This document shows, one piece after another, positions 293-20,413 of a stretch of 20,413 nucleotides of DNA (positions are counted from its first letter, which is position 1; every line of letters starts with the position of its first letter). Where the stretch lies: the NCBI RefSeq assembly GCF_018420025.1, contig NZ_JAEDAM010000096.1, forward strand, positions 1-20,413, given 5' to 3'. This stretch comes from Candidatus Vampirococcus lugosii. GTDB taxonomy: Bacteria; Patescibacteriota; Gracilibacteria; Absconditabacterales; Absconditicoccaceae. Made by a program: the position numbers and the translations under genes. The notes under the pieces were generated by a model. That model was not told where the DNA came from and did no database searches. It saw only the letters and a program-made list of their open reading frames with translations.

Positions 293-366
293 GGGCTTGT
301 AGCTCAGTTGGTTAGAGCAACCGGCTCATAACCGGTAGGTCACTGGTTCAAGTCCAGTCAAGCCCA
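293..366 (+). tRNA. tRNA with CAU anticodon. The body resembles bacterial tRNA-Ile, so likely tRNA-Ile2 (lysidine-modified); elongator tRNA-Met is not excluded.
   Basis: Hand-folded 74-nt cloverleaf: acceptor GGGCTTG/CAAGCCC, D arm GCTC-AGTTGGTTA-GAGC, anticodon arm ACCGG-CTCATAA-CCGGT, T arm ACTGG-TTCAAGT-CCAGT, discriminator A. No encoded CCA. No initiator features (no 1:72 mismatch, no GGG/CCC anticodon stem). Confidence 0.85.
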
Positions 367-369
367 TTT

Positions 370-443
370 GCGGGTGTAACTCAATTGGCTAGAGTATCTG
401 CCTTCCAAGCAGAATGTTGCGAGTTCGAGTCTCGTCGCCCGCT
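370..443 (+). tRNA. tRNA-Gly (anticodon UCC)
   Basis: Hand-folded 74-nt cloverleaf: acceptor GCGGGTG/CGCCCGC, anticodon arm TCTGC-CTTCCAA-GCAGA, T arm GCGAG-TTCGAGT-CTCGT. It starts 3 nt after the previous tRNA. This is the ordinary GGN reader, not a UCA tRNA. Confidence 0.88.
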
Positions 444-489
444 ATTTAAATTAGATATTGATTTAAGTAGAAAAAAGTCAAAAAAGGAC

Positions 490-517
490 TTGAAAAATTA
501 AATAAAATAATTATACT
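490..517 (+). promoter_or_regulatory. sigma70-like promoter candidate upstream of 23S
   Basis: TTGAAA (490-495), 16-nt spacer, TATACT (512-517). The flanking GACTTGA motif is shared with the 237 candidate (AGACTTGA vs GGACTTGA). Confidence 0.3.
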
Positions 518-614
518 GTTTCTTACTTCAACGACAAAAAGTGAGTTAAATATTTGGATGTAAATGCTAATTAAAAAAAAGAAGATCATTAACAGATTGA
601 TATATTATATTTTT

Positions 615-3607
<2,993 letters not shown>

Positions 3608-3663
3608 AAAAATATAATGTATTAATTTGTATGTGATGATAAAATTATAAATTAGTAGAATAT

Positions 3664-3686
3664 ATAATATAATATAATATAATATA
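3664..3686. repeat. (ATAAT)n pentanucleotide microsatellite, about 4.6 copies, in the 23S-5S spacer
   Basis: Direct reading: ataat ataat ataat ataat ata. Confidence 0.8.
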
Positions 3687-3709
3687 AAAAAATACTATAA
3701 AAAATTATT

Positions 3710-3731
3710 AAGAAAGTAGTAAGAAAGTAGT
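3710..3731. repeat. 11-bp tandem direct repeat AAGAAAGTAGT x2 in the 23S-5S spacer
   Basis: aagaaagtagt at 3710-3720 and again at 3721-3731, exact. Confidence 0.8.
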
Positions 3732-3739
3732 AAAAAGTA

Positions 3740-3767
3740 TTGAAAATATGATATAAATCATTATATA
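3740..3767 (+). promoter_or_regulatory. weak internal promoter candidate upstream of 5S/16S
   Basis: TTGAAA (3740-3745), 16-nt spacer, TATATA (3762-3767). Could be chance in AT-rich spacer. Confidence 0.2.
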
Positions 3768-3834
3768 AGATTACTTTAGTAAAAGTTTCTTGAATATATA
3801 GACAATATTAAATAGATAATAGATTAGTATTTAA

Positions 3835-3958
3835 TATTGGTGGTATTAATGCAATATTAGGAGACACCTGTTACCATTCCGAACACAGAAGTTAAGTTAA
3901 TATTGGTTGATGATACTGGTTCTACTGGAGCTGGGAAAGTAAATTGGTGCCACCAATA
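3835..3958 (+). rRNA. rrf: 5S ribosomal RNA (ends approximate)
   Basis: Terminal helix ATTGGTGG / CCACCAAT, and the conserved CCATTCCGAACACAGAAGTTAAG block (loop B/helix III region). Confidence 0.9.
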
Positions 3959-3986
3959 TTAAGTGCTGATGAGTTACTTAATGTTG

Positions 3987-4003
3987 ATATAATATAATAT
4001 AAT
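3987..4003. repeat. (ATAAT)n microsatellite, about 3.4 copies, in the 5S-16S spacer
   Basis: at ataat ataat ataat. Same unit and orientation as 3664-3686, so 5S is bracketed by the same microsatellite. Confidence 0.75.
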
Positions 4004-4083
4004 AAGATGTATTATAATAAAATAATAAGAAGGTCATTAAAAGAGATGTAATAATAATTAAAGGAAGTATGGTTATAGACTTA

Positions 4084-5601
<1,518 letters not shown>

Positions 5602-5693
5602 AAGTAAAGATATAAGTAGAGAATAAAATAAACAAGGGTTTATATACCATACTTCTTTTAATTATTATTGCATTGATATGAATATAAATGTTT

Positions 5694-5729
5694 AAAAAAA
5701 GCTAATTATTAATTTAATTAGTTTTTTTG
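5694..5729. terminator. bidirectional intrinsic terminator between 16S and the convergent mutL
   Basis: A7 run, stem CTAATTA (5702-5708) / TAATTAG (5715-5721) with a 6-nt loop, then a T7 run. The A and T runs can extend the stem. The symmetric A/T flanks suit termination from both directions. Confidence 0.45.
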
Positions 5730-5856
5730 TTGATTTTTTTAAAAAAATTTAATTAGTGATAGTTTGTTTTGTATTAATTTAAAATTTGTATTAATTTAAA
5801 ACAGGAAAGTATATAAAAAGTATATAATATATTAAGTAAAAATTAATATAAATTTT

Positions 5857-7623
5857 TTATCTATCAAAAAGTTTTTCTATATTTTCTTTTGATATATTTA
5901 CTATGCTTGGTCTTCAATGTTGACAAACAAACATTTTATCTATGTTTTTATATCAATCATTTATTAAATTTACCATTTCTGGTATTGAAAGTTTATCTCA
6001 AGCTTTTATTGATGTTTTACAAGCTTTAGTAGCAAATATTTCATCAAATATACTATCCAAAGAAATATTTTCTGAATAAATTATTTTATCTATTACTTTT
6101 TCCAAATCTATATTATATTTTATGAAAATTTTGGGAACTGAATATATAGCAATAGAATCTTCTCATATCATAGATATATCAAATCATAAATTATTTAATT
6201 GTTCTATCTTTTGATCAGTATTTATATTTTTAGGAACTTGAATACTAATTGGATTAAGTATTATTTCAGGCTCTAAATTATTTTCTGTCATATCTTTTTT
6301 CATTTTTTCAAAAGCAATTCTTTCTGCCAAAGCATGTTGATCTACAAAATATAATTCATTTTCACCTTGCAAAATTATAAAACTATTCCATATTTGTCAA
6401 ATAACTTGAAATTCTTGAAAATTATTATTTATAATAGAATTATTTTGTACTCAATCAAAATTTGATTTTGAATAAATATTTGTTTGTTCAGGGAAATTAA
6501 AAGAAGATCAATAATTTGATTTTGGTTCAGCAAATCAACTTTTATAAAAATTATTATTAAATCAAGAATTATAAGATTTATTTACAAAATTATTTTGATA
6601 ATCTTTCTGATAATTAAGACTAGCACTAGAAACTTTTTCACTACTAAAACAAGATGATAATGTTTGAGTTATTAAATTAAAAATACTATTAGGATCTTGA
6701 AATTTAACTTCTTGTTTTCTTGGATGCACATTTACATCTACCAAACTTCAATCTATTTGTAAAAAAATAATAGCAAGAGGAAATTGTCAAGGACTTATTT
6801 GTCTTTTGTAAAAATCAAGAATGGCTTTTTTTATTATTTTGTCTTGTACTGGTCTATTATTTACAAAAATTTTAATATTACTTGGAGAAGAAAATGTAAG
6901 TGTACTATCACTTGCTACACCAAATATAGAAATTTTATTAAATTCATTTTCCAATATTTTTATATTATTTTTCCAAGATTCTTTATAAACTTGCAAAAGT
7001 CTTGTAAGACAATCATTAACTTTATTAAAATTTTTAATTATTTTACCATTTTTTATAAGTCTAAATTTTTTATCGTAATTTTGAATAACAAAATTTAAAA
7101 ATATGTCCAAAATATAATTATATTCAGTGGTTTCAGTTTTTAAAAATTTTTGTCTAGCAGGAACATTAAAAAATAAATCTTGTACCAAAACTTTAGTTCA
7201 ATGTTCTTTATCAAAAGCAATTTGTTTGATAGATATATTTTTATCTATTTTTATAAGTTGATTTGCCACAGTATCATTAGTAGATTTTGTTTGTATAGTA
7301 AACTTACTAACTTCAGAAATTGTAGATAATGCCTCTCATCTAAAACCAAAAGAAGATATATCAAGTAAATCTTCATCAGATTTTATTTTGGAAGTTGCAT
7401 AACTTTGAATAGAAAGTTCAAGATCTTCTTGAGAAATTCAAAATCAATTATCTTCTACTTTTATAAAAGATTTACCACCATTACTAATTTCCAAAATAAT
7501 ATCATTGGCACCTGCATCCAAACTATTTTCAATTAATTCTTTTACCACAGAACTTGGTCTTTCTACAACTTCTCATGCTTTCAATTTATTTATAATATAT
7601 GGAGCCAACTTTTTGATTCACAT
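5857..7623 (-). CDS. mutL: DNA mismatch repair protein MutL (588 aa; table 25)
   Basis: ATG at 7623, TAA at 5859-5857. I checked every in-frame codon and found no TAA/TAG, with about 18 in-frame TGA. N-terminal GHKL motifs: [26 protein letters not shown]-terminal motifs: [12 protein letters not shown] and CQHGRP. The three standard-code fragments in the ORF track (6184-6372, 6562-6744, 6787-7188) are all in this frame. Confidence 0.93.
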
Positions 7624-7639
7624 TATTAATAATAATAAA

Positions 7640-8014
7640 TTAAATTTTTTTATTAAATTTTATTTTTGGTCTTTCTATTAATTTTATATTTTTTTTGGAA
7701 ATATTTTTATACTTATAATTTAAATATATAGAAATTATATAATGTTTAATATATGTTTTATTGATAATATATAAAAAATTTGATTTTATTTTTTTTATAG
7801 GAAAAATTAGAGCTAATCACAAAAAAAGTATCAATGTAGCAAAAGGTGTAGGAGTAAGATAAGCAAAAATTCAAAAAAGTAAAATTATTATTCAAATACA
7901 TATTCTAAATATGTAATGAGTTTTCCAACAATATTTAAAAATTTTATTTTTTTTTATTAGTTTAAATAAATTATTAACTTTTGTTTTAAAATTTTTATTT
8001 ATTTTTTTCTTCAT
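7640..8014 (-). CDS. small basic membrane protein (124 aa), possibly a YbaN/DUF454- or PGPGW-like hairpin; family uncertain
   Basis: ATG at 8014, TAA at 7642-7640, three in-frame TGA. It ends 17 nt upstream of the mutL start, same strand. Hydrophobic core ICIGIIILLFGIFAYLTPTPFATLILFLGLALIF between Lys-rich ends. A 125-codon frame free of TAA/TAG is unlikely by chance in DNA this AT-rich. Confidence 0.5.
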
Positions 8015-8055
8015 AAATAATTCAAATTAAGTTTTAATTAAAATTTATTATATAT

Positions 8056-8083
8056 AATATAATTATTTTTTCATAAATATCAA
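8056..8083 (-). promoter_or_regulatory. promoter candidate for the small-membrane-protein/mutL unit
   Basis: On the - strand: TTGATA (8083-8078), 16-nt spacer, TATATT (8061-8056). Confidence 0.25.
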
Positions 8084-8224
8084 ATAAAAATATAGATATA
8101 ATTTTGTATAGTCCTGCTAAAATTTATCCAACTTGAATGTTAAAATTATTTGTTATAGAGTTTTTTAAATATTTTTTTATATACTTAAATCTATATAATT
8201 TAATTAAATTAAATCTATATTTAT

Positions 8225-8253
8225 TTGACAAATTAAACTTAAATATATAAAAT
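8225..8253 (+). promoter_or_regulatory. near-consensus sigma70 promoter for the 8307/8773 gene pair
   Basis: TTGACA (8225-8230), 17-nt spacer, TAAAAT (8248-8253), about 50 nt upstream of the ATG at 8307. Confidence 0.45.
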
Positions 8254-8306
8254 ATATTAGATGTATATATTAATTTTAATATAAAAAATTAAAATAAAAT
8301 AATTTT

Positions 8307-8768
8307 ATGGAAAATAAAAAATGTGAGCAATATCTTGCAAATTATATTAAATCAAAAAATTTTAATGATAAAGAGAGTATTTCATATATAATGAAAAATG
8401 CTTGGTGAGAGAATATTTCTAATTGTTATAAATATTTTGGTTGATCAGCTGATATAAAGGATTTTATTAAAAATTTAAAATCTAATCAAAACTATAAATA
8501 TACTGAAGAAAAATGAAAAAATAATAAAAAAGAAACAATAAAACAGAAAGAAGAAGAAATTCAAGAAAATATAAAACAAGAAAATATAAAACAAGAAAAT
8601 ATAAAACAAGAAAATATAAAACAAGAAAATATTTGACAGTTTGATTCTATGATTGATAGTTCTATTTACTTATTTAAAATAATATGAATATGTTTTATAT
8701 GAATTATAGTAGTATTATTAATAAAATATATTAGAATATACTTTATTTTAAAAATAAAAACAAAATAA
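8307..8768 (+). CDS. 153-aa membrane-anchored protein; paralog of the N-terminal module of the downstream ATPase
   Basis: ATG 8307, TAA 8766-8768, seven in-frame TGA. MENKKCEQYLANYIKSKNFND...KNAWGENISNCYKYFGGSADIKDFIKNLKSNQNY aligns by eye with residues 1-60 of the 8773 product. (QENIK)x4 linker, then GQFDSMIDSS plus the TM helix LFKIIGICFIGIIVVLLI, again matching the neighbour. Confidence 0.75.
8562..8632 (+). repeat. 15-bp in-frame tandem repeat CAAGAAAATATAAAA, 4.7 copies, encoding (QENIK)n
   Basis: Exact copies at 8562, 8577, 8592 and 8607, and a partial copy at 8622. Confidence 0.95.
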
Positions 8769-8772
8769 TTAG

Positions 8773-11700
8773 ATGGAAAAGAAAAAATGTGAGCAATTTC
8801 TTATAGATTATATTGAATCAAAATCATTTAATGAAGATGAACCTGTTTGATCTATAGCAAAAAATGTTTGGTGAGAAAATATTTCTAATTGTTATAGACA
8901 TTTTGGTTGATCATCTTGAATATCTGATTTTATTAATAATTTAAAATCTAATAATAATTACCATTATTCTGCTGAAGAAGAATGAATATCCAATGATAAA
9001 TGAGAATGAAAATGAACTAGTGTTTGAAAAATCTATGATGAACTTAACTGAGAGAATCAAGAAAATTGAGAATTTCAAGAAAATCAAGAGCAAGAAGTTT
9101 GACAATTTGATTCTATAATTGATACTTCACTTTTTGCATTAAAAATAATATGAATATGATTGTTATGAATTATTTTAATAATATTTATTTGGAAATTATT
9201 TAAATATCTTTTTGCTTTTTTGTATGATGTTTTGAATATAAGAAGAATTCAATATCTTAGAGTAATAATTCCTAGGTGAGATAGTAGAGAAGAAAGAGAA
9301 ATGCAAAAAGAAATTGCAAAAGATATGCATGAAAAAATAGCTAGGATGGGACAAGTTTTTAGAAATATTCATAAACTTTGAGAATTATCTGTTCGGGATA
9401 TAATTATGAATTATGTGTTTTCAAAACCTAAAGTTTCTTTTGCTTTACATTATAAAGATTGACAATTACAATTACTTTTTGCAGTATATCCTGAATATAA
9501 AAATATTTTGGAATGAGCTATTACAGCTCAATATTCTGATGCAAGTGTAGAAACTATTAAAATACCTCATTTTTTTGCAAAAACATATTATGATATAATT
9601 CCTATACATCCTGAAAAAGATCCTGTTTATCCTATAAGAATATTTAAACAACTTGAAGATGATCCTTTGAATAATGTTTTGGATGCTATTTGAAAAATTT
9701 CTAATGAAGATACATTTACAATATTTACAACTATAAAACCTGCTTGATCAAGTTTTAATATTAAAGCACAAAATTTTGCAAATGCATTATATAAAAAAGA
9801 TGAATCAGTAACATTGTCTACTCCTTTATGGAAAAAACTTGTTTTCCCTTGGAAATTTTTTGATTTTTTAATACATTGACCTTCTGATTGATTAGTTAAA
9901 AAATTTAGTAATAATGACAGTCAATGAGATCCAATTATTCGTATGGTTAAATCTGAAGAAGATGCATTAAATGCTATGTGAGAAGAAGCTGGTAAACCTG
10001 CATTTATCTCTGGTATGATGTTAATCACTTCTTCAGATTATAAAGATAGATTATGAGCAAATTTGCAAACAGTAGTATCAGCACTTACTATATATAAAGA
10101 TGAATATAATAATTGATTAAATCAACCAGAAATTATGCATGATATTTTTTGATTTATATTTAAACCTTTATGGAAATTTGCTATATTTTTTCATTTGCCA
10201 AATTTCTTTTATAAAAAAAATATTTTTACGGTAAATGAATTAGCTTGATTTTTTCATATTCCAGATTGATTATTTAATCGTTCTCCAATTATAAAATGGA
10301 TGGATTACAAGGCATTACCTGCTCCAGATAATTTACCAAAAATGGAAAAACCAAATAATTTTTTTATCACTTGAAAAGTTGCTGAAGAATATTTAGATTG
10401 AAATATATCAAAAATATTTAAATGAGTAAGACATTGGGCAGTTGGTAAGAAAAAAACTAAAAAAGAAAAATTAGTTCCTATAGAAAATTATAAAAAAAAT
10501 GAATTATTTGATAAAGAAATAATAACTAAAAACGGTAAAGATTATGTAAAAGAAACTGTAAATGTTTTACAAACTTGACTTAGAGTTTTTAAAGATTGAA
10601 CACTTTTATGAGTTAATGTTTATAGAAATAGATTTACTCCTATTTATATGAGGAAAAAAGATAGATCTAGACATCATTATATTATTTGAAAATCTGGTTG
10701 AGGTAAATCAGTTTATATTGCAAGTATGGCTAGACAAGATGTTTGGAATTGAGATTGACTTTGTGTTATAGATCCCCATTGAGATTTGGTAGAAGATATT
10801 ATGGAATATATTCCTAAAGAAAGAGCAAAAGATGTTATATATTTTGATGCAGGTAATGAGGAAAGACCTATGTGACTTAATCTTTATGAAATTGATAATC
10901 AAGATCAAGCAGATAGAGTTGTAAATGATGCTACTGAAATATTTATGAAAATGTTTGGACCAGAAATTTTTGGACCTAGAATTCAAGAATATTTCAAATA
11001 TGCAAGTTTAACATTATTGGAAGATATGGAAGAATGAGCATCATTAATTGATGTTCCAAGATTATTTACTGATGAAACTTTTAGAGAATATAAAATCAAA
11101 AAAGTAAAAAATCCTGTAGTTAAAAATTTTTGGGATAAAACATATAATGCTATGGGTGATAGAGAAAAACAAGAAATTATTCCTTATTTTACTTCCAAAT
11201 TTGTTAATTTTATTACTAATAGACTTATTAGAAATATTATATGACAAACAAAATCAGCTATTAATTTTCGTAAAGCTATGGATGAAGGGAAAATATTGCT
11301 TGTAAATTTAAGTAAATGAAAGCTTGGTGAAATGAATGCACAGCTTTTAGGTATGATTTTGGTAAGTCAAATAAATAATGCAGCTATGTCAAGAGCTGAT
11401 ATTCCAGAAGATCAAAGAAGAGATTTTTTCTTATATGTTGATGAGTTTCAAAATTTTGTTACTGATACTTTTGCCGATATTTTATCAGAAGCTAGAAAAT
11501 ATCATTTGGCATTAATAATGGCTCATCAATATATATGACAGCTTGAATGATCTAATTGATGAATGTGAGATTCAGGTTGAGTAAAAGATGCAGTATTTGG
11601 TAATGTATGAACTATGCAAAGTTTTAAAATATGAGCACCAGATGCAGAAGCTTTGGAAAAAGAATATGCTCCAGTTCTTTCTCCTCAAGATATAGTTGGT

Positions 11701-11904
11701 ATATCAAATTTTAAAGTGTATATTAAATTAAATATTTCTAATGCATCTAGTAGAGTATTTAGTATGAATACTATATGGACAGAAGATTACAAAAATCCAA
11801 AAGTTGCTGAAATATTAAAAGAATATTGTAGCAAAAAATATTGAAGAAAAAGACAATTTGTAGATGCTGAAATTAGTGCTAGATTAGGTATATTAAATGA
11901 TTAA
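8773..11904 (+). CDS. TrwB/TraD/VirD4-like (type IV coupling protein-like, FtsK/HerA superfamily) membrane-anchored P-loop ATPase, 1043 aa
   Basis: ATG 8773, TAA 11902-11904. Every codon checked: no TAA/TAG, about 54 in-frame TGA. Motifs: N-terminal TM (ALKIIGIGLLGIILIIFIW), Walker A HHYIIGKSGGGKS (10687-10710), VIDPHGDL, Walker B FFLYVDEFQNF, MAHQYIGQL, AVFGNVGTMQSFKIG. ELAGFFHIPDG resembles the N-terminal domain seen in candidate phyla radiation (CPR) homologs of this ATPase class, from memory. Confidence 0.85.
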
Positions 11905-11973
11905 TTTTAATATTTTACTAATATTTATATATAATTAGTAGGTTACTTATCAAATTCAACATGTTGTTTATCT

Positions 11974-12020
11974 TAATAACAAAAAAAGTGTATTTTATAA
12001 ATACACTTTTTTTGTTATTA
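11974..12020. terminator. bidirectional intrinsic terminator shared by the convergent 8773 and 15424 genes
   Basis: Perfect 22-nt inverted repeat TAATAACAAAAAAAGTGTATTT (11974-11995) / AAATACACTTTTTTTGTTATTA (11999-12020) with a 3-nt loop. The GTGTATTT core stem has an A run on one side and a T run on the other. Confidence 0.6.
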
Positions 12021-12067
12021 GTTTTTATAAAAAATTATTCTACTCTTTTTTATATGATAAAATATAT

Positions 12068-15000
12068 TTATCTTGTACAATATCATCACACAGTACTATT
12101 TAAACTAGCTATTTCTCATCTTGATAACCTAGGAGCTTCACAAAACCAAGTCCATTGTGTATATCATCATTTCAAATCTAATTTGTCTATTCCTCCTCTT
12201 GCTCTAATTCTAGAATAAGATCAATAATTTTCGTAACAAACTCTGTTTAAAGCATTTGGCAATGGATTAGTATTACCAATATCATCAGAGTCTAATAAAA
12301 CAGAAGAATTGCTTCCAGAATTTGGATTATCAGTTGCCATAACAGATCATGGATTAGTCCATCAACTTTGATACCAACATTCATCTCATATATCTAACAC
12401 ATCAATTCTCCTTCAATTATCAAGTTCTGTTATTTTTCAATTATCACATTTAAAAATTCTTTTTGCAGAATTTGGCATACCATAAGTACTTGATATATAA
12501 TGATATGATAATACTTGTCAATCTTTCATTTGATGAACTCTTACTCAATTAACTTCTTGTTGACTACATCCTCTTCAACTTGAATAATTTTCTAATATAT
12601 AATTTGTTCTAGTTCCATCATTTGATCTATTTATCCATCAACATGTTGTATCCCTTACTGTTGTAGTTCAAGCTATTTTATTACATTCTGATAAACATCT
12701 ACTCCTAGTTAAAACATCTGCAAAACCTTCAGATCTCAATCTTGTACCAGAGCTTAAAACTTGATTATCTCCTACTTTTTCTCAAGTACTTTCTATTTCA
12801 ACACTTCATAAATAACATTGTCACATAGGAATACATTCCTGAATAACACTTGATAATCTACTTGTTGTTTTTTCTTCATATCAATCATTACAACTTCTTA
12901 TTGTTTCTCTTGGTTCACCTACTTTTTCCCACTTACCAGTATTATTATCACATTTAAAATCCTGTCTATATCTTACTACTCAATAATCTACATTTACTTC
13001 TTTATTAACCAATTGTCTTCAATTTCTTTCTGCTATTTCATATCAATCTATTACAGTAGCTTCACATGTTTTATTATTATTGTTGTTGTTATTATTATTA
13101 TTGTTGTTGTTATTATTATTATTGTTGTTGTTATTATTATTATTATTGTTATTATTATTGTTATTATTATTATCAGTTGATAGTATTTCATAATGACAAT
13201 CTACATCAGATTTCAAAAGTGTAGGATCAGTTTTTGAACCTATTCAAAAGTATAAACCATAAGTTGTGTTTCATCATTGTTCAGTTGTATAAACATTAAC
13301 ACCACAACCTGAATTTATTCTTCAAGGAGATGAATTAGTCTTAACAGTAAGATTTTTACCTTTATGTTTAATTATAAAAGAATTTATACCTGATTTTAAT
13401 TTAAAACCTCAACCTACATACTTTTTATTTTTAGAAACTTCTTTTTTCCAAGTTCAGTCAATATTAGTAATATTATTTGGATCTGAAACAGTTATAGTAA
13501 TAGTATCTTCTTTATCTTTTTCTTTTTCACCTTCTTTATCTTTTTCTTTTTCACCTTCTTTATCTTTATCTTTATCTATTTCATAAGAAAGACATATTGT
13601 AGGTTCTAAATTCCAACGAACTTGTGCTGATTGTGTGCCCTCCCAATGTGCTTCAAGATAATTGTTATTACAACTAACACTATTAAAATTTTGTAAATTA
13701 TCTCATTTATTTGTTTTAAGTATAATGCTTGAATTTGGTATAACTTGTGATGAAATATTTTCACACTGTTGTCTATTAATGCTTTTATAACAATTTCATT
13801 TATCTTTACCATCTTCACCTTCTTTTTCTTCTTTCAATACATTATCATTATATTCTACATATAAACTATCATTATAATCTCTTTTTACTACTGCACCATG
13901 TGTTGATGAAAAAACATCTCAAAATTTAAAACCTCAATCTTCTAATTTAATATCAAATTCTATATCATTATATCCTTTTCTTTCCAAAGTAATATTTACT
14001 TTATCTCATTTATTAAATTTATCCATAAATTTTTCATAAGTATAATATCATCAATTCTTATAAGAACTTCAATCAATAGCCATACCAAAAGCTCCTTTTG
14101 CTGTATTCATTCCTTTTTCTGCCTTAATTACAATATCTTTCAAAGATTTACCGTAATTATCTTTAACTACAATAAATGGCACATCAGATTTATCTTCTTT
14201 TAATTCTCAACATTTATTTACTAATTTAGCTTCATAATTTTTATTCACTTCAATATAATAAGTTTCTCAATCTAATGATATTGGAAACATACTACATCAT
14301 CAAAAATCTTTTGATCACAAAACAGGATCAATTCATATACTTATTATATCTCTATCTTTTCTGAATTGTATTTTATTAATACTTTTATTAAAGTATATAT
14401 CTTCTTCTTTTATTCAAGATTTTTTATCAAATAATAAACCTTTTAGCGGTAATTCTATATTTGCTGACTTAAAATTTTGTGGAACAGCAATTATAGCATC
14501 ATTTTTATATCAAGGTAATGATGATATTTTAGGATATTCTTTTGCATTATCAAGCAATACCAGAAAAAGATATCTTTTTTGTTTTCATATATGTAGATTA
14601 TGTTTTTCATAATCATCTTTATAAATATTTTTTAAGTTAATAAGAAAATCTGATTCATCTTGTATTTTTATATCTCTTATTACTTTTATATCTTTTATAT
14701 TTCCATCTTCTTCTCAAATTATAGTATCAATTATTCCACTTATTTCATTTTCACTCTTTTTATTAAGAATTTCTAATGCTTTAATTTTGAAATTAATAAA
14801 TACAACATCTAATACTGGCCAAAAACTATGTGTTTTTAATTGAACTTCTATTTTATTTATAGCTTCTATTTTTTCTACTAACCATGCAATATCCCTTTTT
14901 TCAAGTTCCAAATTTTCAAGCATATTATCAACAAAACCCTTATACATCATTTTCTCTGATGGATTCAATTTTCAAACTTTCTCTTTTAATTCTTTCTCCA

Positions 15001-15424
15001 AACTATCTATCTCTTTTATTAAACTACTTATTCATTTACTTTCTTCTTCTTTTTCTTTATTTTTATCTTCTTTTTCATTTTTATCTCAAACATTTATTTC
15101 AATCCTCTTTGAAAACTCTGGATCATCTAAATTATAATCTTCATTATCACATTTAACTTCTGTCCATCAATTATCATAAAATTTTACTGGTCCACTTCTA
15201 TCTATAATAAGTCATTTTTGATTTGACTTATATGTTTGTCTTGTTCATTTTCAATTATTAGTTGAAATTCTACAAATCTTCCATCATTCAATTTTTATTG
15301 TAACATCTATTTCTTCTCATGGTTTCACTGTCTCACTAGATACACTTAATTCTGCAATATCTTGTCAATAAGATATTCAAGATAAAAAGAACATTCACAT
15401 AAAAAGTAATCATATTTTCTTCAT
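12068..15424 (-). CDS. large secreted cysteine-rich, Asn/Lys-rich surface protein, 1118 aa, no family recognised
   Basis: ATG 15424, TAA 12070-12068. Every in-frame codon checked: no TAA/TAG, many TGA. Signal-peptide-like N terminus MKKIGLLFMGMFFLSGISYG|QD. Coiled-coil-like Glu/Lys segment, (KEGEKEKD) repeats, N33 tract. The C-terminal roughly 400 aa has many Cys and a recurring (F/V)KCDN motif seen 3 times. Confidence 0.8.
13073..13171 (-). repeat. 99-bp AAT/AAC trinucleotide tract encoding 33 consecutive Asn, with a 21-bp higher-order unit
   Basis: On the + strand, (GTT)3(ATT)4 is repeated three times, followed by ATT/GTT variants. The tract is in frame within the 12068-15424 CDS. Confidence 0.95.
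13507..13580 (-). repeat. 24-bp in-frame tandem repeat (about 2.5 copies plus degenerate AAAGAT units) encoding KEGEKEKD / KD repeats
   Basis: CTTCTTTATCTTTTTCTTTTTCAC at 13507-13530 and 13531-13554, a partial third copy, then ATCTTT units. Confidence 0.9.
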
Positions 15425-15488
15425 AATTATTATGGTAATAATATAAATAAATTTAATACTAATTTTTTAAATTAATTAGTATAATTAA

Positions 15489-15516
15489 ATTATATTATTT
15501 TTTTTATCTTTTTCAA
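15489..15516 (-). promoter_or_regulatory. near-consensus sigma70 promoter for the large secreted protein gene
   Basis: On the - strand: TTGAAA (15516-15511), 16-nt spacer, TATAAT (15494-15489), about 60 nt upstream of the ATG at 15424. Confidence 0.4.
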
Positions 15517-15692
15517 GGTTTTTTTATATTTTGTGTGCAAGTAATGTTAAATTTTCAGTATAATAATATTTATTCTATTGCATAATGGAAAAAGATTTAT
15601 CACCATTTTTTATGAAAAATATAAATAGTAATTAACAAATTTATCTTTTTTTATTTTTGAGTTTTATATTATCTTTGTAGATTAAAATCTAT

Positions 15693-15725
15693 AAATAAAT
15701 CCTTGAATAGATCAAGGATTTATTT
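15693..15725 (-). terminator. intrinsic terminator downstream of the MCP gene
   Basis: 14-bp perfect stem AAATAAATCCTTGA (15693-15706) / TCAAGGATTTATTT (15712-15725) with a 5-nt loop, 26 nt after the stop at 15751. The - strand transcript has a U-rich 3' side. Confidence 0.55.
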
Positions 15726-15750
15726 TGTAGTAAGTATATTTTATTATAAT

Positions 15751-17289
15751 TTATTCAAATTTAACTCACATTCTAAATCATCACCAATGTTCTCATTTTA
15801 CATATATAGGAGAAGAAATATCAAGCATAGGAATAGTTTTACCTCACATTTCCCTTATATAAATTTGTACTAATTTTTTTTCTTCATTATTTGAAGCCGC
15901 TTTTAATCAAACTCTATCAGTAAATTTCCTTCTATTTCTTGAATTAGCTGTATTTCGATTTATATCTGATTTTGTATTAGATTTTCTTTGAGGATGTGAA
16001 AATTTTTTATTATGAGTAGGTAAATAACCATCTTTTTTGAATACAGGTGCACAAAATATTATTTTTCATGTTTCATCTTCTTCCAAAATTTTTTCTTGTA
16101 TTTTTTGGAATTCATCAGTTAATCAAGTAAATCAAGTAATATATTGAACAGGATTTGTTCATGGAATTTCAATAAATTTTTCATCAAATAATTCTTCCAA
16201 TGTAATTATTCATACAAGTTCTACAAGATTTCAATTTAAATCAAGTTTTAATTTTTTTACAGTTTTACCTTTATCTATAATTTCTTCAAACATTTTACTA
16301 TAATAATCTGCAGTTTGAGAAGCAATTTCTGCCATTTTTCATTCATCTATGTTTAAATTATAATTAATTCAAAGTTGCATTTGTTTTTCACATATTATAA
16401 GAGATTCGTCCAGATGTGAATATGCACTATCCAATGATTTATTAGAATTATCTAAATCATATCAAGTTTCTTCTAGTTCTTTCATAGTATTGTCTAATTG
16501 ATTTTGAACTATTTCAACAGTTTTTTGAAGTAATTCAAGTCAACCTTTTGCATCTTTAGTTGCTCATACTGCTTTTGAAATATTATTTAAAATATTTTCA
16601 ACTCATTGATTTGAATTATTTGACTTTTGTGCCATATTTTTAATTATCTCTTTTAGAGATTCACTTTTTTCTATTAAATCATTAATTATATCTCAAGTTT
16701 TTTTAGAAGTATTTTCAGTTTTTTTAGATAAAGATTTTATTTCTTCTGCAACAACAGAAAAAGCATTACCTACAACTCATGCTCTAGCTGACTCTATTTG
16801 AGCATTTATAGTTAAAATATTTGATTGATTTGAAATTTCTGAAATATTTCAAGTAAGTGATTTTGCTTCTTGAGCATTATAATTATGAATATTTATTTTT
16901 TCTTCCAAACTCAATATATCAGATATAAGATATTTTATGTTTTCTACTACTTCATCAGTATCAATAGATGAATTTTCCAAAGCTTCTAATGCATTATTTA
17001 TAATAGCTTCAGGTCATTGAGCATTGTCAGAAAGTTTTTGAACTTGTGAAACAACTTTATCTAATCTTTGTATTATATCATTTAAATTATTTATTTTCTC
17101 AAACATTGTAGTTTTGATATTACCAATATTACTTGTTACAGATGCAAGTTCTATAACTTGTTTTTTCAAAAGTCATAAATTTTTTTCAATGTATTCTATA
17201 AGTTGTCAATTAGTTTCTCTTAGCTCTAACAATTCTCATTTTAATTTTTTTGATCAATTAAATAAGTTTACACTAAAATTATTTACCAT
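15751..17289 (-). CDS. soluble methyl-accepting chemotaxis protein (512 aa) with a C-terminal sensor-like domain
   Basis: ATG 17289, TAA 15753-15751. Every codon checked: no TAA/TAG. MCP signalling hairpin SNILTINAQIESARAGVVGNAFSVVAEEIKSLSKKT. No hydrophobic TM segment. C-terminal roughly 170 aa: FCAPVFKKDGYLPTHNKKFSHPQ...NSRNRRKFTDRVGLKAA...DISSPIYVKGEHWGGFRMGVKFE. Confidence 0.85.
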
Positions 17290-17355
17290 AAGAAAATATT
17301 ATTAATAAAATTAAAAAAATTATAAATTGTGTCTTTTAATAAAACAGCAAGTACC

Positions 17356-17383
17356 TATATAATTAAAAAAATATAAATGTCAA
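17356..17383 (-). promoter_or_regulatory. near-consensus sigma70 promoter for the MCP gene
   Basis: On the - strand: TTGACA (17383-17378), 16-nt spacer, TATATA (17361-17356), about 65 nt upstream of the ATG at 17289. Confidence 0.4.
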
Positions 17384-17501
17384 TTAAAAATTATATATTT
17401 TAATAATTTAAGTTAAGTATTCAAATATTATTATTGAAAGATACAAAAAATTTAAAAATATTACTATATTTATTTTGAGTACAAATTTCAAATAAATTTA
17501 A

Positions 17502-18668
17502 TTATCTAACTCATAATTCAACATCAACATTTTTTTCATTTCAATCTGAAATAACTCTAAATTGTATATTATCTCATGGTTTATAAGCGAATAATTGATA
17601 TAAAAATGTATTTCATTTTCAAATTAAATTTCAATTTATATGTGTGATTATATCACCTGATTTAATTCATGCATTATCTGCAGATGAATTTGGAACTACA
17701 TTAGAAATTAATACTCAATTTTTGACTGATAATTCATTTTCTATAGCTATAGCATTATTGATATCTGTATGTTCAACTCACAAAAAAGGTCTTGTAATTT
17801 CATTATCGTTTATGACCATCTCAAGAGTTGATTCAACAAATTCTTCATTTATAGGAATACTAAATCAAATTCACTGACCTATAGCACTTATAGCAGTATT
17901 TATTCAAAGAACATTTCCCCAAATATCCATCAAAGGTCCACCACTATTACCAGGATTTATAGGAGCATCTGTTTGATAAAGTCATACATAAATACTATCA
18001 GCTTTTATATCTTCAAGTTGTCTTCATTTTCAACTTATAATACCGAAACTTGCACTATCTTGAAATTGTGATAAAGCATTTCATATAGCCAAAACAAATT
18101 GTCATACTTTTATATTATCAAATACAGATACAAGATTTACAGTATTTAAATTTGAAGGAACATTTCCTTCATCATTCAATATTTTTAAAACTGCTATATC
18201 AAGAATAGGATCAAACCAAATTTTATCTACATCATATCTAAATCAATCTTTTGTTACAACAGTATAATTTGTATTTCATCTTCTAGCTTCTTGTATAACA
18301 TGTTTATTTGTGATTATATATCAATCTTTTGATACAATTATTCAACTACCTCATCATATTTCTTGATTTTCTTGTTGAGAATATCAACCAAAAAAATTCA
18401 ATGGATCTTGATAATATATGTCCAAATCTCTACTTATTATAATACTAACAACTCATTTTCAAGAATTTGAAATTGTATTTATTAAAATATCTTGTAAATC
18501 ATTTACATTATCCACTCATGATAATGTGTCTATATTTTGTATATTTTCATCAACAAGTTTATTTTCCAAAAGATAATTTTGAGTAAATAAGTGATATCAT
18601 ACTATGAATGTAATATTTATTATTAATGATACAACAATAAGACTTATTATTATTTTAATTTTTTTCAT
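17502..18668 (-). CDS. htrA: HtrA/DegP-family (S1C) serine protease with one PDZ domain, 388 aa
   Basis: ATG 18668, TAA 17504-17502. Every codon checked. N-terminal anchor/signal KIIISLIVVSLIINITFIV. Catalytic triad contexts GGGSGIIVSKDGYIITNKHV, DIAVLKI, TDAPINPGNSGGPL. PDZ segment GVLISNVVPNSSADNAGIKSGDIITHING. Confidence 0.92.
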
Positions 18669-18694
18669 AAATTAATATTTTTTATTTAAATAAA

Positions 18695-19537
18695 TTATTT
18701 ATTTTTAATTATTACATCATTATTACTTCATAAATCAATTTCCAAAAGAGATTTATAATTAACTAATGATGATGCTACAATTCATCTATATTTTTTTAAT
18801 TGTAAAGATATATCTACTAAATTATTAAAATATAAATCTGGTCAATTATTTTGATAAACAATAGTTCTACTAGCTCATGGAATATATTTTATATAATCAA
18901 TATTTTCTTCTCAAACTATATTTTTTATATCCTCAATTTGAGATTTTAATAAATTACTATTTACTTTATAAAAAAAAGATTTATCCATATGTGATTTTTT
19001 TATATAATTTGGTATTTTTATTTTATTATTTTCAGATATTAATGAACTTCATGAATATAAAGAGAACATATTCTCACCAAAACTTGCAATATATGAGTTA
19101 TCATTAGTAAAAATAAAATCAAAATCAACATAATTAACATTCAAAATTGCAACTCAGTTTCAAATATGATTAATATCAAAAGATTTTAATATATTAAATT
19201 CATCCAAAATTTGTTTTTCATAATTTCATTTTTTTAAATACTTGAATATATAATAATTTTCTCAAATAATTCAAGATTGTATTTTTGAAAACATATCTTT
19301 GTTTGGATAATCATTAATATTTTTTTCCAAGAATCTAATTTCTTTTATTTCATAATCATCGGACAATATTGTATATTGCAATGATACATACAAAATAAAA
19401 GAAAAAATTATAAAAAAGAATAAAAAAAAGTATTTCTTTTTATTCTTATTAAGAAATATATTAATATACCTTAATTTTTTCTTAAATAAATTTTTTTCTC
19501 TTTTCCAAAATCTTTTTGATCCAAGCTTATGTTTCAT
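18695..19537 (-). CDS. FtsQ/DivIB-like cell-division protein (280 aa): single N-terminal TM plus POTRA-like region; assignment tentative
   Basis: ATG 19537, TAA 18697-18695. Every codon checked. Basic N terminus, TM YFFLFFFIIFSFILYVSL, then YEIKEIRFLEKN (like the FtsQ POTRA start) and an extracytoplasmic domain of the usual size. No strongly diagnostic motif. Confidence 0.5.
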
Positions 19538-19540
19538 AAA

Positions 19541-19981
19541 CTAATAAAAAATTGTATATAAAATAACAGTAATTATTGATCAAAACAATATTCAAGCCAA
19601 AACTTCATATAAAGTATGTCATAATCTTTCTTTTAGAAGAATATATTTATTATCTCAAAATTCAAATACTGTTTTTAGTTGATGACTAATATTATTTAGA
19701 TATTTGGCATGTTTTCCAGCTTCATATCTTACATTCATACTATCATACCAAAATAAAAATGAAAAAGTAAAAGCTATAGCAAATTCTGAAGAATCTATTC
19801 AAAATTTTAATAACATTAAAGTTGTTATACTAGCTGATATTCAACTATGAACTGATGGAAATCAACCAGCTCTTCGTATACTTTGAACATTAATTTTTTT
19901 CTCTTTATAAAAATCTATAAGTATTTTTATTAATTGTATAATAAATCATATAAAAATAGGAACAAAAAAATAATGAATCAT
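19541..19981 (-). CDS. divergent PAP2 family membrane protein (DUF212, YuiD-like), 146 aa
   Basis: ATG 19981, TAG 19543-19541 (the only TAG stop in the window). Motifs IIQLIKILIDF, RRAGGFPSVHSG, YDSMNVRYEAGKHA and LKERLGHTLYEVLAG match the family pattern GG(M/F)PSSHS ... YDA.GVRR.AG ... LGHTP.EV recalled from B. subtilis YuiD. Its stop is 3 nt from the FtsQ-like start. Confidence 0.85.
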
Positions 19982-20215
19982 ATTAAAAAATATAAATACT
20001 AAATTTAAATGACATAATAAACAAATAAACTCAAAAATCAATTTAAAATTGTTTTTTTGTGTCGATAATATTAAAGGATATTTATATAATTAAAAATATT
20101 TACTGTATAAATTGTTAATTATTGATTTTCCTCGCTTGGCGGGAAAAAAATATTGATTTTGGTAAAGAAAAAAATATAATGAAAAGGATTTAGTAAAATT
20201 AAAAAAATTAAAGAA

Positions 20216-20413
20216 ATGAAAAAAATATTGATATGAACACAAGATTTCAAAACATTTATAAATGAAAAATGATATTATATAGATAAAACTAAAACAATAC
20301 ATAATTTATTGATAAGTAATAGGTATTATTTTTTGTCTAGACCAAGAAGATTTGGGAAATCATTGACATTATCAATGATAAAATATTTGTATATGTGAGA
20401 AAAAGAATTATTC
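20216..20413 (+). CDS. AAA-ATPase-like protein (PF09820-type N terminus, usually fused to a PD-(D/E)XK nuclease domain); 5' partial, runs off the window
   Basis: MKKILIGTQDFKTFINEKGYYIDKTKTIHNLLISNRYYFLSRPRRFGKSLTLSMIKYLYMGEKELF matches the family signature PIG.Q.F......YYVDKT......L......YFLSRPRRFGKSL recalled from memory. Three in-frame TGA, one on the conserved IG. Confidence 0.8.

Follow-up and report, generated by a model that had tools for sequence, protein, structure and literature searches.

UGA as a glycine codon and CGA as a probable tryptophan codon in a contig of Candidatus Vampirococcus lugosii

Candidatus Vampirococcus lugosii has been described as a predatory bacterium of the Absconditabacteria (SR1), within the Candidate Phyla Radiation, and that description states the reading of UGA as glycine for its genome, with a citation of Campbell et al. 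2013 (Moreira et al. 2021, PMC8080830). A second change, the reading of CGA and CGG as tryptophan, was predicted computationally for the Absconditabacteria by Shulgina and Eddy 2021 (PMC8629427), whose main text does not have Vampirococcus among its names; it is taken as given in PMC13092985. The prediction study also describes a tRNA-Gly(UCA) for the clade and finds release factor 2 (RF2) genes only in the two Gracilibacteria species that are without this tRNA. Here we compare these described systems with a stretch of 20,413 nucleotides, referred to in the following as the window.

The window has a G+C content of 27%, and four of its encoded proteins are identical to NCBI entries of Candidatus Vampirococcus lugosii (taxid 2789015): MutL (MBS8122428.1, with TGA translated as glycine), a 512-residue protein with an MCP domain (MBS8122433.1), an HtrA-type protease (MBS8122434.1) and a DUF212 protein (MBS8122436.1). 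The closest relatives of the window proteins come from Absconditicoccus praedator and from SR1 genomes. The exact protein matches support membership of the Absconditabacteria/Gracilibacteria clade, and the lineage proposed in the earlier note on this DNA, which had been made from the sequence alone, is borne out. A scan of a genome collection with MutL returned standard-code bacteria only, because the back-translated patterns used for such a scan cannot hold TGA for glycine, and was uninformative on the lineage. We conclude that the window almost certainly belongs to Candidatus Vampirococcus lugosii, that UGA is an ordinary glycine codon in it and that termination occurs at UAA and UAG only.

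Under the standard code (table 11) the longest ORF overlapping positions 5604-20413 has 133 amino acids (6787-7188, minus strand), which is the ceiling given in the earlier note. When TGA is read through as a sense codon, the nine ORFs listed there are reproduced, with lengths of 124 to 1118 codons and an ATG start in every case; eight end in TAA, one ends in TAG and none, in this small sample, ends in TGA. Their coding frames comprise 4352 codons, among which there are 214 TGA and neither TAA nor TAG, while 562 TAA and 206 TAG are present in the other two frames of these genes. The presence of in-frame TGA without TAA or TAG is therefore not a matter of chance. The hand counts of the earlier note (54 in-frame TGA in the gene starting at 8773 and 18 in mutL) proved exact, and in-frame TGA is found at each of the positions it had named, namely 5914-5916, 7573-7575, 10687-10689, 10699-10701, 16777-16779, 18342-18344, 18351-18356 and 19862-19864; positions 8869-8874 read TGG-TGA, as it had said.

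Could these TGA codons be genuine stops in genes broken by pseudogene decay or by sequencing error? Such a reading would account for the absence of standard-code ORFs above 133 amino acids in the region, and the genome was derived from whole-genome-amplified cells. The stop codons, however, are strongly asymmetric for an A+T-rich genome, as the frames are interrupted by TGA and never by TAA or TAG. The frames also run intact for up to 1118 codons with no frameshifts, TGA occupies catalytic and structural glycine positions, and independent relatives show the identical pattern. Pseudogenes were rejected on the asymmetry of stop types, and decay or error is vanishingly improbable as an explanation; a sense codon, as proposed in the earlier note, is what the frames indicate.

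The first of the nine ORFs is mutL (5857-7623, minus strand; 588 aa, 18 in-frame TGA, stop TAA), with the Pfam domains DNA_mis_repair, MutL_C and HATPase_c_3. It is followed by an ORF for a hydrophobic protein of 124 aa (7640-8014, minus strand; three in-frame TGA, stop TAA) with no family match and no homologue in the loci of relatives that were examined. On the plus strand, an ORF of 153 aa (8307-8768; six TGA) repeats in tandem, in diverged form, the 5' end of the gene that follows, with 54% identity to the N-terminus of its product, and belongs to a tandem duplication of 466 bp at 8284-9173. The next gene itself (8773-11904, plus strand) encodes 1043 aa with 54 in-frame TGA and one CGG, and resembles VirD4/TraD/TrwB-like ATPases in weak matches below the cut-off (TrwB_AAD_bind, TraG-D_C, a CD1115-family VirD4-like model and SXT TraD, in Pfam and NCBIfam); a scan of viral contigs yielded no relatives of it. 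The largest ORF (12068-15424, minus strand; 1118 aa, 60 in-frame TGA) starts with a signal-peptide-like N-terminus, includes a run of 34 asparagines and has no family match.

The remaining four genes also lie on the minus strand. The 512-aa protein (15751-17289; 26 TGA, one CGA) combines an MCP signalling domain (Pfam MCPsignal) with a conserved C-terminal module, and the 388-aa HtrA/DegP-type serine protease (17502-18668; 28 in-frame TGA) consists of Trypsin_2 and PDZ_2 domains. An ORF of 280 aa (18695-19537; 11 TGA) is placed between the protease gene and the gene for DUF212, a divergent PAP2 family (Pfam DUF212; 19541-19981; 146 aa, eight TGA, one CGA, stop TAG). This position is kept in relatives, where the ORF has tblastn matches in the loci L077, L078, L079 and L080. 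The gene identities suggested in the earlier note thus hold for MutL, the MCP signalling protein, HtrA (Trypsin_2 and PDZ) and DUF212, all of which score above the Pfam cut-offs, whereas the TrwB/TraD assignment is weak and stays below the cut-off in both Pfam and NCBIfam.

The identity of the amino acid inserted at UGA was assessed by tabulating residues at TGA columns, as the earlier note had suggested. In HtrA, the 27 alignable TGA columns pooled over 79 distant homologues contain 1185 glycines and 96 tryptophans, compared with background frequencies in the same comparison of 9.2% for glycine and 0.8% for tryptophan. Glycine is the commonest residue in 18 of these columns and tryptophan in none. 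About one third of the TGA columns lie at positions that are not conserved, as is to be expected for any codon. Solved structures agree with the tabulation, since glycine occupies the motif positions singled out in the earlier note in E. coli MutL, in DegP-type proteases, in TrwB and in a Thermotoga chemoreceptor. Glycines of E. coli MutL align with the window TGA at residues 17, 60, 62, 96 and 142; in TrwB, glycine matches the TGA of the Walker A motif (10687-10689) as well as that of D-P-x-G-D, and the Thermotoga chemoreceptor has it at the TGA that follows E-S-A-R-A.

A comparison with closer relatives leads to the same assignment. For mutL, the translations of the 48 relatives had been made at their source with TGA as tryptophan, so that a W in them may stand for TGA; read in this way, the residues at window TGA columns (G 21%, W 50%) are nearly equal to those at window GGN columns (G 24%, W 54%), and at window TGG columns glycine is absent (0%). 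Likewise, the DUF212 TGA columns in 118 relatives are mixtures of G and W, the latter representing TGA. Codon alignments show exchange of TGA and GGN in both directions and never of TGA and TGG. The window TGG columns of mutL and DUF212 are 71-89% W in relatives, with no G, and at the DNA level their partner is TGG or CGA. UGG is thus kept as a tryptophan codon.

Several public pipelines have translated these genes with table 4 (P0002, P0122, P0242), in which UGA encodes tryptophan as it does in Mycoplasma and several insect endosymbionts. Table 4 would be in keeping with the low G+C content, with TGA as a sense codon and with TAA and TAG as the stops. It would, however, raise tryptophan to 5.7% of the residues in the nine genes and leave glycine at only 1.9%, which becomes 6.9% when TGA is counted as glycine. 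Moreover, tryptophan is the commonest residue at no TGA column of the standard-code homologues, where glycine dominates, and the relatives swap TGA with GGN instead of TGG. Table 4 was rejected because the column tabulations do not place UGA on conserved tryptophan, and we regard it as extremely unlikely. UGA as glycine and not tryptophan, the central claim of the earlier note, is upheld by the HtrA columns, the solved structures and the codon exchange among relatives alike. UGA makes up 214 of the 298 glycine codons in the nine genes (72%) and so predominates among them; this share is not given in the available passages of PMC8080830.

In principle UGA might be ambiguous, being mostly glycine and partly a stop, or being read at some sites by another tRNA or as selenocysteine. 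A potential ambiguity, due to wobble of U34 between UGA and UGG, is indeed noted in PMC8629427. With 214 sites and up to 60 in a single gene, on the other hand, a modest rate of termination at UGA would already leave no full-length protein, and TGA serves as the stop in none of the nine genes. Selenocysteine was rejected since the 214 sites lie on glycine columns and cysteine does not rank among their commonest residues; at the HtrA TGA columns it is outside the eight commonest. An ambiguous UGA is therefore very unlikely.

According to ARAGORN and Rfam, positions 370-443 (plus strand) encode a tRNA-Gly(UCC) with G1:C72, C2:G71, G3:C70 and U73. This is an ordinary glycine tRNA and is not the UGA reader. 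It is accompanied in the window by a tRNA-Met, and a UCA anticodon occurs in no tRNA of the window; four loci of relatives contained no tRNAs. A pattern scan of metagenomes for tRNA-Gly(UCA) gave 50 loci, none of them in a UGA-recoded context, and the glycine-like UCA tRNAs obtained in this way lie on contigs of standard or unassessable code. From the literature on the clade, one would expect a UCA-anticodon tRNA with glycine identity elements to decode UGA, and the genome to lack release factor 2, the factor that would otherwise end translation at this codon.

The earlier note had assigned the window to translation table 25. Its UGA component stands, but the table is probably an incomplete description, as both CGA codons of the window are found on tryptophan columns. 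CGA and CGG are very rare, with two and one occurrences, respectively, in the 4352 codons of the nine ORFs. The first CGA (15955-15957, minus strand, in the MCP-domain gene) lies on a nearly invariant tryptophan column: a search with a 51-aa fragment free of TGA gave 117 representative homologues, which have W in 112 cases, F in two, Y in two and R in one, the last being the protein of the window itself. The invariant arginine columns in this 51-aa stretch are encoded by AGA or AGG in the window. The second CGA (19874-19876, minus strand, in the DUF212 gene) occupies an aromatic (Trp/Phe) column, where 118 relatives have 49 W, 48 R, 17 F, three L and no G; at the DNA level this codon is CGA in the window and in L077, L078 and L079, and TGG in L080. 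In the mutL genes of relatives, all four CGA codons are on TGG or tyrosine columns. CGA is thus located off arginine columns at both window sites and at all four of these sites, the AGA columns examined are never paired with CGA or CGG, and the arginine columns of MutL have W in 0.1% of cells.

These alignments suggest that CGA is read as tryptophan, not arginine, in Vampirococcus lugosii, which we consider quite probable. By extension CGG, whose sole occurrence is at 9394-9396 (plus strand, in the gene at 8773), is probably read as tryptophan as well. A tRNA(UCG) or tRNA(CCG) is not found within the window. Alternatively, table 25 may be complete, with CGA and CGG as rare arginine codons and with the tryptophan columns reflecting coincidence or real substitutions of tryptophan by arginine. 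The NCBI proteins, which have arginine at both window CGA sites (P0241, P0361), conform to this view; the window holds only three CGA and CGG codons, and the published reassignment of these codons is so far a computational prediction. A complete table 25 would, however, have to reconcile arginine with a position at which 112 of 117 homologues have tryptophan in a motif whose invariant arginines are AGA or AGG, with a DUF212 column of W, F, L and CGA-encoded "R" in which TGG alternates with CGA among relatives, and with the placement of CGA in the relatives' mutL and of AGA in the columns examined. We therefore regard it as rather unlikely. If CGA is indeed read as tryptophan, this change has to be added to table 25 to give the code actually in use. 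A code with three changes (UGA to glycine, CGA to tryptophan and probably CGG to tryptophan) is likely for Vampirococcus; it is contained in no NCBI table, and its prediction for the clade was made earlier.

Could the two reassignments be causally connected? As UGA dominates among the glycine codons, a tRNA-Gly(UCA) with U34 would threaten UGG by wobble, and this pressure on UGG might have led to the uptake of CGA and CGG as additional tryptophan codons. That these codons were recruited in response to the change of UGA is a speculative proposal, and we consider it unlikely.

What do these readings mean in practice? The reassignment of UGA to glycine is correct and adds nothing new scientifically because it has already been published for Vampirococcus lugosii (PMC8080830). 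Its practical value lies in correct gene calling, as the window looks like junk under table 11. Table 4 turns every recoded glycine into tryptophan, and public protein sets contain such mistranslated copies of the genes studied here. Annotation with table 25 probably places arginine instead of tryptophan at the CGA sites, including the nearly invariant tryptophan of the conserved module, and if the three-change code is true the deposited Vampirococcus proteome has arginine where the cell inserts tryptophan. The window offers an independent, small-scale confirmation of CGA behaving as tryptophan in one more genome of the Absconditabacteria lineage.

Among the known codes, code 25 of the Absconditabacteria/SR1 and Gracilibacteria is the closest: as stated for Vampirococcus lugosii (PMC8080830), organism, contig and reassignment are the same and there is no difference in kind. 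The likeness comprises UGA as a sense codon on conserved glycines, UGG as tryptophan, UAA and UAG as stops and a low G+C content. The tryptophan reading of CGA and CGG in Absconditabacteria is matched as well, by the rarity of CGA (2/4352) on tryptophan columns, by the encoding of arginine with AGA and by the swap of TGG and CGA among relatives. Code 4, used by Mycoplasmatales, Entomoplasmatales, Hodgkinia, Nasuia, Zinderia and Stammera, shares UGA as a sense codon, UAA and UAG as stops and an A+T-rich, reduced genome, but differs in that UGA is tryptophan there and glycine here.

Under the standard code (table 11), the longest ORF overlapping positions 5604-20413 is 133 aa. Reading TGA as a sense codon gives nine ORFs that start with ATG, span 124 to 1118 codons and fill the region to the right of the rRNA genes, eight of them terminated by TAA and one by TAG. 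The coding frame of these nine ORFs (4352 codons) holds 214 TGA and neither TAA nor TAG; the two non-coding frames of the same genes contain 562 TAA and 206 TAG. Interruption of the frames by TGA only cannot be due to chance or decay, in agreement with the earlier note, which had read TGA as sense and not as pseudogene decay. Its 133-aa maximum and its nine ORFs were reproduced, and its hand counts of in-frame TGA (54 in the gene at 8773, 18 in mutL) and all of its TGA coordinates are exact.

Judged from sequence comparison, UGA is glycine and not tryptophan, as the same reader had proposed, and four independent lines concur: standard-code reference proteins, HtrA columns, columns of relatives and codon alignments. 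E. coli MutL has Gly opposite TGA at aa 17, 60, 62, 96 and 142, TrwB in both Walker A and D-P-x-G-D, and a Thermotoga chemoreceptor in E-A-A-R-A-G; of about 24 TGA sites that align with DegP-type proteases in a printed alignment, read by eye, 12 face Gly and none faces Trp. The tabulation of consensus residues at TGA columns suggested in the earlier note was carried out for HtrA. Pooled over 79 distant homologues, these columns contain 1185 G and 96 W; among the 27 that could be aligned, G is the commonest residue in 18, and W never is. The stray W were traced to entries that their sources had translated with table 4 (UGA as Trp). For mutL, 48 relatives had been translated by their sources with TGA as W, so that any G there must be GGN. 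The relatives show 21% G and 50% W at columns with TGA in the window, 24% and 54% at GGN columns, and 0% and 71% at TGG columns; therefore, TGA columns resemble GGN columns and not TGG columns. DUF212 relatives follow the same pattern. When the window's mutL is aligned codon by codon with that of two relatives, Absconditicoccus praedator (complete genome) and one other, TGA and GGN are exchanged in both directions, and TGG stands opposite TGG only. The composition concurs: Gly makes up 6.9% of residues counting TGA versus 1.9% without it, and Trp under table 4 would reach 5.7%.

UGA is the majority glycine codon of the nine ORFs (72%), in which GGC and GGG occur once each. Across the mutL genes of the window and four relatives (L024, L026, L081 and L082) the TGA:GGN ratio follows G+C, with 18:7, 24:5 and 17:3 in low-GC genes and 7:25 and 14:36 in higher-GC SR1 genomes.

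The codon meaning is the part demonstrated here; for the decoding machinery we infer from the clade literature (PMC8629427) that UGA would be read by a tRNA(UCA) bearing the identity elements for glycine and that RF2 would have been lost. The 20-kb window contains no UGA-reading tRNA, and none was recovered from the loci of four relatives. In the tRNA-Gly(UCC) of the window all canonical identity elements (G1:C72, C2:G71, G3:C70, U73) are present, and the glycine identity set is therefore intact in this genome. A metagenome pattern scan returned tRNAs of 72-77 nt that combine the anticodon UCA with GCGGG in the acceptor (locus L073, 8966-9041 of OGZM01000847.1, and loci L039, L050, L060, L030, L038 and L053), most of them with the glycine-like U73. 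That of L073 lies within an 11-tRNA array adjoining standard-code genes without in-frame TGA. These tRNAs appear to be glycine-type opal suppressors of bacteria without UGA reassignment.

The window has a G+C content of 27%. RNA genes make up its left third and are all encoded on the + strand: tRNA-Met (293-366), tRNA-Gly(UCC) (370-443), 23S (622-3601), 5S (3839-3955) and 16S (4084-5603). In this order (293-5603) the 16S gene is downstream of 23S-5S, not upstream. Because the assembly was derived from MDA/MALBAC-amplified cells, the arrangement may be an amplification chimera. A passage of the genome paper describes "a single rRNA gene operon" (Moreira et al., PMC8080830).

Four of the families named in the earlier note exceed Pfam cut-offs, all on the - strand: MutL (5857-7623), the MCP signalling domain (15751-17289), HtrA-type Trypsin_2 plus PDZ (17502-18668) and DUF212 (19541-19981). 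The fifth, TrwB/TraD, was matched below cut-off only, by the 1043-aa VirD4/TraD/TrwB-like ATPase (8773-11904, +). A tandem duplication (8284-9173; 466 bp, 1.9 copies, 74% match) covers its start, and the 153-aa ORF upstream (8307-8768) duplicates its first ~125 residues in diverged form (54% identity), with its own fivefold QENIK repeat (8562-8632) and a hydrophobic tail. The 124-aa, 280-aa and 1118-aa ORFs gave no family matches, the last against both Pfam and NCBIfam; the place of the 280-aa ORF between DUF212 and HtrA is kept in four relatives. At its N-terminus the 1118-aa ORF (12068-15424, -) resembles a signal peptide; it further contains 34 consecutive Asn (13071-13173) and KDKEGEKE repeats (13507-13582), and its C-terminal third is rich in Cys. 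The C-terminal third of the MCP-domain protein (15751-16300) contains a conserved module, F-C-A-x-V...G-Y-L-P-T-H-N-x-K-F-S-x-P-Q...D-x-x-W-N-x-A-N-x-R-N-R-R-x-F-x-D-R, without Pfam coverage. It is matched by more than 100 representative proteins and lies C-terminal to the MCPsignal domain in all four full-length matches checked with Pfam.

The window translations (TGA as Gly) of MutL (MBS8122428.1), MCP (MBS8122433.1), HtrA (MBS8122434.1) and DUF212 (MBS8122436.1) are identical to NCBI entries of Candidatus Vampirococcus lugosii, which bears out the view that the recoding indicates the lineage. Public protein collections hold two translations of the same genes, one with TGA as Gly (NCBI) and one with TGA as Trp (Logan/ENA calls, table 4); in the table-4 versions (P0002, P0122, P0242 and many relatives) Trp is inflated to 3-5% and false W enter family alignments at invariant Gly columns.

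The assignment to table 25 in the earlier note stands for UGA as Gly and probably not as the complete code, since both CGA codons of the window fall on Trp columns. A computational study by Shulgina and Eddy (2021, PMC8629427), whose main text does not mention Vampirococcus, predicted that CGA and CGG both encode Trp in Absconditabacteria, and a 2026 paper (PMC13092985) accepts this as given. The window holds only 2 CGA and 1 CGG (9394-9396, +) codons; Arg is otherwise encoded by 104 AGA, 12 AGG and 4 CGT. The CGA at 15955-15957 (-) lies in the MCP-protein motif D-x-x-W-N-x-A-N-x-R-N-R-R, at a column with W in 112 of 117 representative homologues (F 2, Y 2, R 1); the lone R is the window's own protein, and the window encodes the invariant Arg of this stretch by AGA/AGG. 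At the CGA at 19874-19876 (-) the DUF212 column reads W 49, R 48, F 17, L 3 and G 0, and the DNA is CGA in the window and three relatives and TGG in a fourth. All four CGA codons in the relatives' mutL fall on TGG or Tyr columns, no AGA column examined pairs with CGA or CGG, and W occupies 0.1% of cells in MutL Arg columns. These alignments make it quite probable that CGA is Trp in this genome; if so, table 25 is incomplete here and deposited proteins hold Arg where Trp belongs. MBS8122433.1 and MBS8122436.1 each show Arg at their CGA position, and mistranslation is probably systematic at every CGA or CGG of the genome.

The reassignment of UGA to glycine is correct here, yet already published for this organism: it is stated for Vampirococcus lugosii in a passage of the genome paper (Moreira et al., PMC8080830), and because that concerns this very sequence we claim no novelty for it. 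To this the present analysis adds the CGA caveat, the 72% share of UGA and the tracking of G+C by the mutL TGA:GGN ratio.
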